Assembly: GCA_964409035.1 (NCBI GenBank) | Contig: CAYPBQ010000003.1 | Span: 41,530-105,529 of the forward strand | Origin: an uncultured Candidatus Saccharibacteria bacterium | GTDB lineage: Bacteria; Patescibacteriota; Minisyncoccia; Phycocordibacterales; UBA12088 | Direction of reading: 5' to 3' | DNA: 64,000 nt | In this document: in pieces, positions 33,590 through 33,689 of the stretch | Layout: every line of letters starts with the position of its first letter | Numbering within the stretch: the stretch's first letter is position 1 | Made by a program: the position numbers and the translations under genes | The notes under the pieces: generated by a model | Told to the model about the DNA's origin: nothing | Database searches by the model: none | The model's input: the letters and a program-made list of their open reading frames with translations, nothing else

Positions 33590-33626
33590 GGTATACTTAC
33601 TCAAGTGTTACTTGAGTAAGTATACC
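33590..33626. promoter_or_regulatory. Perfect 17-bp inverted repeat (candidate operator) immediately upstream of LexA-MTase start codon
   Basis: 'GGTATACTTACTCAAGT gtt ACTTGAGTAAGTATACC' abutting the ATG (33588); followed by tandem 'TACCGAAAAT' x2 at 33623-33643. Confidence 0.6.
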
Positions 33627-33689
33627 GAAAATCTACCGAAAATGTTAGTAGGGGTTTATCCACAGAATCTGATATAATTGAAGTTATGA

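Follow-up and report, generated by a model that had tools for sequence, protein, structure and literature searches.

The control of restriction-modification, and its possible response to infection or DNA damage, is known from few model systems, which rely on C-proteins, on methylases that carry a helix-turn-helix, or on methylation of promoter sites, and the organisms of the candidate phyla radiation cannot be cultured. The spacer between the -35 and -10 elements of a promoter is the classical position of a repressor. The methylases M.EcoRII, M.SsoII, M.Ecl18kI and M.ScrFIA repress their own promoters through an N-terminal helix-turn-helix (PMC3874152). Direct repeats are also on record as LexA motifs: GTTC-N7-GTTC, with the same period as the repeat reported here, occurs in Alphaproteobacteria (PMC8565304), direct-repeat motifs have been reported for Balneolaeota too, and PMC7739468 cites a Patescibacteria SOS study among the direct-repeat cases. 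The stretch of DNA considered here (the window) comprises 64,000 nucleotides from an uncultured Candidatus Saccharibacteria bacterium (assembly GCA_964409035.1, contig CAYPBQ010000003.1, positions 41,530 to 105,529); the names of homologues assign the organism to the Patescibacteria. Within it, a spacer of 101 bp (33589-33689) is the control region of a restriction-modification operon that encodes a methylase fused to LexA (M1), an AlwI-family endonuclease, and a second methylase (M2). This spacer contains both a tandem decamer and a perfect palindrome. The reading that appears probable as a whole is that the decamers are the operator, the palindrome is a young duplication confined to one lineage, the heptamer GTATACT in its arms represents a -10 element, and the fusion protein is a cleavable repressor of its own synthesis.

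The palindrome consists of two 17-nt arms, 100% complementary and separated by 3 nt (GGTATACTTACTCAAGT / ACTTGAGTAAGTATACC), and a single base (33589) lies between it and the start codon of the fusion gene on the minus strand. By our own estimate, a short-loop inverted repeat with 17 perfect base pairs is expected only about 1e-8 to 1e-7 times in a 100-bp spacer. It is the second-longest perfect hairpin of the window, the other long ones being GC-rich and terminator-like. Four of these GC-rich perfect hairpins, of 13-18 bp (12120-12156, 26270-26301, 6079-6107 and 6918-6947), have the appearance of bidirectional intrinsic terminators; two of the GC-rich hairpins have A/T-rich outer stems (GTAAAA...TTTTAC), and 12120-12156 sits between convergent genes. 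The decamer TACCGAAAAT occurs twice beside the palindrome (33623-33632 and 33634-33643) with a repeat period of 11 bp, its first copy sharing 4 nt with the palindrome end. Even with 3 mismatches allowed, the pair occurs nowhere else in the window (0.08 expected). Read on the minus strand, the box is ATTTTCGGTA-G-ATTTTCGGTA; its TTCG cores occupy 33640-33637 and 33629-33626 (TTCG-N7-TTCG). An earlier note on this DNA had described the 37-bp dyad at the start of the gene, the tandem decamer next to it, and the location of both in the control region of a LexA-type repressor-methyltransferase gene; all three descriptions were confirmed, the last by Pfam domains.

These domains are a LexA DNA-binding domain (PF01726, residues 1-64, 1.6e-15), an S24 autopeptidase (PF00717, residues 79-190), and a D12-class N6-adenine DNA methyltransferase (residues 227-487). 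Residues 1-196 score 179.6 bits against TIGR00498 (lexA; cut-off 110.95) and match the solved LexA structures 3k2z and 1jhh end to end, although the whole protein, at 554 aa, is far larger than a free-standing LexA of ~200 aa. The Ala-Gly cleavage site (A86-G87) and the Ser/Lys dyad (S121 and K158) do not vary among 31 orthologues or among 52 diverse fusions.

On the strand of the fusion gene, its promoter reads -35 TAACAT, spacer TTTCGGTAGATTTTCGG, -10 TATACT, so that the decamer box occupies the spacer between a weak -35 element and the -10 element, both placed by the promoter scan. Counterparts of the -35 element at orthologous loci are TTTACA/TTACAT (L085), TAGCAT (L082) and TTCCAT (the class of ~65% protein identity defined below). 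Transcription is predicted to start near 33611-33613, inside the palindrome. On the same strand the palindrome covers positions -14 to about +23 of the promoter, taking in the -10 element, the predicted start and the entire 5' leader, and it stops one nucleotide short of the ATG.

Orthologous fusion loci with 80% (L081) and 71% (L082-L085 and L179-L182) protein identity were compared with the window, together with a class of ~65% identity (L001, L002, L003, L005, L045, L086-L095 and L119). Because the recognition helix LSAVSTVHQHI is essentially invariant among the orthologues, the operator is expected to be conserved as well. No palindrome was present upstream of any of the fetched orthologous fusion genes, whether of 80%, 71% or ~65% identity, and an exact search found it in none of the viral contigs or 165 other loci. 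It is confined to four independent assemblies of one lineage, and is therefore not an assembly artefact; one of the four (L169) is 99.2% identical, with a single substitution, in the palindrome loop. The assemblies derive from runs SRR14271331, SRR14271332, SRR14271335 and SRR28154525. Between the -10 element and the ATG, every orthologue has a leader of its own sequence and length (20-41 nt), and the small inverted repeats in orthologous leaders (4-5 bp, AT-rich and different at each locus) were treated as chance. The palindrome contains no TTCG/CGAA core, which is the core that accompanies this recognition helix elsewhere.

In contrast, the adjacent direct repeat is conserved. The tandem decamer and the heptamer that follows it (ATTTTCGGTAGATTTTCGGTATACT) are identical in the window, L082 and L085 despite a protein identity of 71%, and the version of the block in the ~65% class is ATTTTCGTAAGATTTTCGGTATA(C/A)T. 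The box is near-identical in 18 of 18 orthologous upstream regions, and is also present in L179-L182. The sole invariant block among the 18 regions is TTTTC(G)..ATTTT(C)GGTAT, and 17 of the 18 aligned fusion loci have GGTATA(C/A)T immediately behind the box.

The association of such a box with LexA domains extends well beyond these orthologues. The first 206 residues of the fusion protein, used to scan metagenome contigs, yielded 80 further LexA-domain loci of Patescibacteria (L086-L165). Nearly all LexA-domain loci have a direct repeat just upstream of the gene with an 11-bp period, which holds in most of the ~80 loci. The pattern TTC[GT]-N7-TTC[GT] was found upstream of 79 of 83 LexA-domain genes, compared with 166 of 3890 control windows (4.3%), and upstream of none of 22 orthologous D12 methylases that have no LexA domain, being either fused to RadC or unfused. 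In the 1.55 Mb of DNA that was fetched, TTTCG-N6-TTTCG has 56 matches, nearly all directly upstream of a LexA-domain gene, compared with 3 in one shuffle. Across the ~80 loci the repeat varies with the recognition helix: HQH accompanies TTTCGG, K/R-S-T-x-H-H/Y accompanies GTTCTA, and SVSTAHHH accompanies TTTCTAT or TTTCGAT. The literal GTTC-N7-GTTC is present in several helix classes of Patescibacteria; the core in the window is TTCG, not GTTC.

The anatomy of the region, its conservation, the tie of the box to LexA domains and its variation with the recognition helix are shown by the sequences themselves, and point to the tandem decamer as probably the autoregulatory operator, of LexA type and with a TTCG core. 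Indirectly, the covariation and the absence of the box where the LexA domain is missing favour binding by the cognate LexA. The earlier note had proposed that the region holds the operator of the protein encoded beside it, which is very probable; the element, however, would be the decamer box and not the palindrome, which had been put forward as the expected autoregulatory operator and which occurs in no orthologue and lacks the TTCG core. The decamer, treated there as a mere appendage, is the invariant element, located in the promoter spacer and tied to the LexA domain and its helix.

Fusions of this kind are recurrent. In the metagenome sample, 51 of 59 complete LexA-domain open reading frames (ORFs) encode at least 400 aa, and all 52 long LexA-domain proteins, including that of the window, combine a LexA DNA-binding domain, an S24 domain, and a DNA methyltransferase. 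The methylases of the 52 fusions belong to the N6_N4 (28), D12 (16), N6_Mtase/Eco57I-type (6) and C5 (4) families, and the Ala-Gly, Ser and Lys cleavage residues are invariant across all of them. In other Patescibacteria, RadC takes the place of LexA as the fusion partner of the same D12 methylase. A complete and presumably cleavable LexA thus appears to have been joined repeatedly to unrelated methylases of four families. A literature search of incomplete coverage found no description of LexA-methylase fusions.

In the proposed mechanism, the fusion protein would dimerise through its S24 domain, and the dimer, seated on the two repeats between the -35 and -10 elements, would block RNA polymerase. 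The first protein of the operon would thereby throttle the synthesis of methylase and endonuclease, as N-terminal helix-turn-helix methylases and C-proteins do. Because the Ala-Gly site and the Ser/Lys dyad are invariant, RecA-triggered self-cleavage is expected: activated RecA would prompt it, the DNA-binding domain would be detached, and the operon would be derepressed.

The window also contains a chromosomal lexA gene, followed by a Y-family polymerase gene. The 190-aa product is one of a large family of Patescibacteria proteins that carry a LexA annotation, and barely reaches the TIGR00498 cut-off of 110.95 (111.9 bits). Its site, GTATACTGAACGAACGTTCAGTATAC, is a perfect 12+2+12 dyad within a promoter with -35 TTGTAT (19282-19287) and -10 TATACT (19305-19310), and the ATG is at 19317. 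TGAAC-N4-GTTCA is conserved at this gene and at four homologous loci (L170-L173). In all five, TATACT stands 1-3 nt after the box, and since the ATG is only 6-8 nt past the -10 element (6 nt in the window), the lexA mRNA appears to be leaderless. The left GTATAC of the box is found only in the window and in its 75% relative among the five loci.

The outer arms of the palindrome had been equated with those of this host box. The identity is literally true, but GTATACT reads as the -10 hexamer TATACT of two promoters, preceded by a G, rather than as a shared operator, because TATACT or GGTATA(C/A)T follows the box in both families; GTATAC, moreover, is three times over-represented in the window (37 copies, with 11.2 +/- 3.2 expected). 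Host LexA is not expected on the palindrome, which contains neither GAAC nor GTTC, and a host-LexA site was ruled out, the five-locus consensus TGAAC-N4-GTTCA having no counterpart in it. The accompanying proposal, that the element has a LexA-like specificity of its own distinct from that of the host, stands: the specificity of the fusion LexA appears to differ from that of chromosomal LexA, and what supports this is the decamers, not the palindrome.

The palindrome itself most probably represents a recent, one-step inverted duplication of the -10 element and adjacent bases within a hypervariable leader. It would have been born by template switching in a single step, would be left unbound by the LexA domain, would form no hairpin in the mRNA, and would at most modulate the one fusion promoter. 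Its dyad symmetry overlaps the promoter, as would be expected of an operator, but it is not conserved in orthologues, and it shares only the -10 hexamer with the host site and not a half-site. The earlier note had counted random copies away from any gene as evidence against its proposal; no copy was found in viral contigs or the 165 loci, which neither supports nor refutes an operator role.

The alternative that survives best, although it is rather unlikely, is that the palindrome was acquired by this lineage as a second operator for some other dimeric protein of the island or the host, adding a layer of repression independent of LexA. Perfect symmetry from -14 to about +23 of the promoter would suit such a function, as would the intact arms of the 99.2% identical variant with its sole substitution in the loop, but a substitution confined to the loop is not significant. 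The island that carries the operon encodes several small unassigned proteins and the neighbouring terminase small-subunit-like (terS-like) helix-turn-helix protein, but no candidate binder was identified, and homologues of the terminase gene elsewhere are not accompanied by such a palindrome. Half-sites are not enriched in the window (8 compared with 6.5 expected, with 2 mismatches allowed), and a third exact copy of ACTTACTCAA at 33782-33791, which could count in favour, falls in a conserved stretch of the terS-like coding sequence.

A second alternative arises from the other strand. Of 84 related loci, 60 have a promoter of sigma-70 type within -75..+12, on the strand opposite to the LexA-domain gene and running through the LexA box, compared with 14.4 expected from shuffles; it takes the form TTGACx, a spacer of 16-18 nt and often TGnTAnnnT, and is directed toward the upstream neighbour. 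The conserved leader motifs (A/G)TAGCA and GTCAA/ATCAA are accounted for by this antisense promoter. By the same criteria, the window has none, and its palindrome duplicates the exact -10 context in inverted form, so that the right arm could be read as a mirrored -10 element, GGTATACT, on the plus strand, which would have replaced the antisense promoter and let the box gate the genes from terS to the recombinase as well. This is improbable, because the -35 element that it needs is very poor (TTTTTT/TTTTTG within the coding region, 2 of 6 matches); the two -10 hexamers would stand 21 nt apart rather than 2-5 nt as at other loci, and a much better extended -10 element (TGATATAAT) already fronts terS, beyond the box.

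Similarly improbable is a reading in which the protein on the direct repeat is not the fusion but a free-standing chromosomal LexA with the same helix, or another regulator; the LexA part of the fusion may then serve, for example, in dimerisation or in releasing the methylase upon damage. Free-standing LexA proteins with this helix type and kind of box do exist in other Patescibacteria, and the 64 kb in view are only part of the genome. On the other hand, across many classes the type of box follows the helix of the fused domain encoded next to it, strong purifying selection acts on the DNA-binding helix of the fusion, and the only chromosomal LexA in the window has a different helix and a TGAAC-N4-GTTCA box.

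That the palindrome is the autoregulatory operator of a dimer of the fusion LexA, with GTATACT arms akin to the host SOS box, is very improbable. The idea is attractive in that a perfect dyad abuts the ATG of a repressor gene and covers its -10 element, that most LexA proteins bind palindromes, and that the host lexA box is likewise a perfect dyad with the same terminal heptamer. However, no orthologue with the invariant recognition helix has the palindrome, a TTCG/CGAA core is missing from it while the adjacent TTCG direct repeat is invariant and specific to LexA domains, and the outer heptamer coincides with a -10 hexamer and contains an over-represented hexamer.

Least credible of all is a leader hairpin in the mRNA that occludes the start codon, or a terminator: folded as RNA, the palindrome reaches -25.9 kcal/mol (z = -6), and only one nucleotide lies between it and the AUG, but the conserved -10 element (33624-33619) within its 5' arm places the predicted start of transcription inside it, so that the mRNA would hold only the 3' arm and the hairpin should not form, the neighbouring genes are divergent with no upstream gene or promoter on the same strand, and the stem is AT-rich, unlike the terminators of this genome, and lacks a U-tract.

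Other functions were considered and rejected. A terminator or structured RNA was set aside on account of the AT-rich stem, the absence of a T-tract, and the site between divergent genes, and an Rfam search with the palindrome gave only chance-level matches. A packaging (TerS) site found no support, since the 80% relative has an unrelated terminase gene, at another location; in viral contigs, homologues of the TerS-like protein of the window have only terminator-like hairpins upstream. A recombinase attachment site was not supported either, as the right end of the island is at tRNA-Asn, 4 kb away, and a search for attachment sites found no repeat of the tRNA end or of a palindrome arm.

Several points nevertheless weigh against the view that the decamers are the operator of a self-repressing fusion and the palindrome a young duplication. 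Binding, repression, cleavage, the start of transcription and the origin of the palindrome are deduced from comparison of sequences, on which the mechanism depends. A LexA dimer on a direct repeat is established in other groups of LexA, and is extended to the fusion protein by analogy. A chromosomal LexA paralogue with the same helix, or another regulator, may also use the box; the 209-aa ORF at 34744-35373 may be one such regulator. A perfect 37-bp dyad over the -10 element and the transcription start would look exactly like a second operator, and its perfection could reflect selection instead of youth. The antisense promoter that most other loci have in the leader is missing from the window, and therefore the palindrome may have replaced something functional. 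The only variant (L169) changes the loop and leaves the arms intact, an outcome that by our own estimate has a chance of about three in four at 0.8% divergence. The databases contain no relatives between 80% and 99% identity, so that the palindrome cannot be dated.

Table 1. Positions of the palindrome, the candidate operator, promoter elements and genes in the window
Feature	Position	Strand	Basis or remark
Perfect 17+3+17 palindrome	33590-33626		Inverted-repeat search; arms 33590-33606 and 33610-33626
Direct-repeat LexA-type box, candidate autoregulatory operator of the fusion gene	33623-33643	-	Conservation
-10 hexamer TATACT of the fusion-gene promoter	33619-33624	-	Promoter scan; within the left arm of the palindrome (gene's strand)
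Weak -35 element, CTAACA (18-nt spacer) or TAACAT (17-nt spacer)	33642-33648	-	Promoter scan
Extended -10 element (TGATATAAT) of the divergent promoter	33670-33678	+	Read directly from the sequence (predicted)
DnaA-box-like TTATCCACA	33656-33664	+	Between the two divergent promoters
Chromosomal lexA operator region	19284-19309	+	Core TGAACGAACGTTCA at 19290-19303
LexA-methyltransferase fusion gene (554 aa)	31924-33588	-	Pfam, TIGR00498, structure matches
Restriction endonuclease of the AlwI family, type IIS (gene 2 of the operon)	30098-31948	-	PF09491, 5.5e-89
M2, a CcrM/HinfI-like methyltransferase of the N6_N4 class (gene 3 of the operon)	29300-30094	-	Pfam and NCBIfam profile matches
Divergent gene, terminase small-subunit-like (terS-like) helix-turn-helix protein (128 aa)	33690-34076	+	phrog_4102, 2.9e-20
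Large serine recombinase gene	36197-37747		3' end overlaps the 3' end of tRNA-Asn

The operon (Table 1) lies on what appears to be an island of ~8.6 kb (~29100-37807) integrated at tRNA-Asn, and the GC content of the window is lower between ~28 and ~38 kb. The cargo of the island consists of the serine recombinase, the terS-like gene, a LOOT RNA, four small ORFs without a family match, and the type IIS restriction-modification operon. As expected of a type IIS system of the AlwI family, the endonuclease is found together with two methylases (D12 and N6_N4) within one operon, and the gene order of fusion, endonuclease and second methylase is the same in L081, L082-L084, L085 and L179-L182. The real start codon of the endonuclease gene may be further downstream than annotated. 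A recognition sequence was sought through over- and under-representation of 5-mers in the window, and no signal was found. Homologues of the terS-like protein are present in viral contigs, and the island is reminiscent of a phage satellite or of a small integrative element. The LOOT RNA (Rfam RF03000; 80.4 bits, gathering score 46.4) occupies the intergenic region directly after the terS-like gene, at 34121-34241 on the plus strand; GAATAAAGAC is located at its 5' edge, and in the viral contigs L174 and L175 the same motif precedes homologous terS genes. The 209-aa ORF, on the plus strand, has no Pfam or PHROGs match, but its C-terminus (IIGQQGNGYRLG), judged by eye, is like a winged helix of the OmpR/PhoB type, making it a possible further DNA-binding protein.

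The extended -10 element that faces the terS-like gene is 7-11 nt on the 5' side of ATGs at 33686 and 33690, and was not listed by the promoter scan because no -35 element exceeded the threshold. A lone GANTC site (GAATC, 33666-33670) lies in the spacer of this terS promoter, adjoining the DnaA-box-like motif; because the second methylase of the operon is CcrM/HinfI-like, control sensitive to methylation is conceivable there.

The DnaA-box-like motif TTATCCACA is present in 49 of 83 LexA-domain upstream regions, compared with 0.6% of control windows, and LexA-domain promoters may perhaps be co-regulated by DnaA. The orientation of the motif varies, and it often abuts the -35 element (GTTATCCACAGTTGACA). 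Both lexA-type promoters of the window carry it, at the position given in Table 1 and at 19272-19280, and the third such site of the window is in the upstream region of mraZ (56047-56481), where TGTGGATAA and two copies of GTGGGATAAAGTG within 55961-56035 are probably MraZ boxes. Two further loci have more than one LexA-type box: L106 has two direct-repeat boxes in opposite orientation (2994 and 3046) upstream of the fusion gene, and L135 has a second box with a -10 element (7994), ~3 kb downstream of the first, possibly fronting another LexA-controlled gene.

A broader reading can also be entertained, as a tentative possibility: that such fusions may form a general class of autoregulators of restriction-modification in Patescibacteria, each with a box matched to its helix and inducible through RecA upon DNA damage or phage infection, with the palindrome of the window as an added second operator. 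An intact LexA with a box in its own promoter offers a concrete and testable route from activation of RecA to more methylase and endonuclease. As the architecture recurs in the candidate phyla radiation with D12, N6_N4, N6/Eco57I-type and C5 methylases, the biochemistry of one such protein would inform the whole class, and its interest is moderate to high, that of the palindrome itself being low. For annotation, genes of this kind are labelled either "LexA" or "methylase", and each label is incomplete; the operator to seek is a direct repeat, and a striking palindrome found in one lineage can mislead.

The closest known systems differ from this locus in several respects. Methylases of the EcoRII/SsoII type, whose autorepression is the nearest mechanism on record, resemble the fusion in having an N-terminal DNA-binding domain, an operator on their own promoter, and negative autoregulation of restriction-modification (PMC3874152). 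Whereas the SsoII-like C5 methylases have a short helix-turn-helix, the fusion has a LexA of ~200 aa with an intact autopeptidase, joined to a methylase of the D12 class; a direct repeat forms its candidate operator, and a single operon holds the methylase and endonuclease genes in the same orientation. The autopeptidase is the new element, and adds a predicted release that is inducible by damage. Control by C-proteins and C-boxes is similar in that a dedicated regulator site before the first gene sets the timing and level of the endonuclease, but here no separate C gene is present, the conserved site is a direct repeat and not a palindromic pair like the C-boxes, and the palindrome has no cognate C protein. 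The cleavable S24 repressors of the phage CI type are likewise encoded back-to-back with mobility or packaging genes in an integrated element, these being the terS-like and recombinase genes in the window; in contrast to them, the repressor of the window is fused to a methylase and its box overlaps only its own promoter, and control of the divergent operon is not supported. The Gram-positive-type SOS (Cheo) box, GAAC-N4-GTTC, is exactly what the chromosomal lexA of the window has in its promoter spacer, whereas the palindrome of the fusion gene, with neither GAAC nor GTTC, has the -10 hexamer alone in common with it. The direct-repeat LexA boxes (PMC8565304, PMC7739468) resemble the decamers in having two cores in the same orientation with an 11-bp period, overlapping the promoter of lexA itself; the core in the window is TTCG (TTTTCGGTA) instead of GTTC, and the gene that it would regulate is not a free-standing lexA but a LexA-methylase fusion at the head of a restriction-modification operon.

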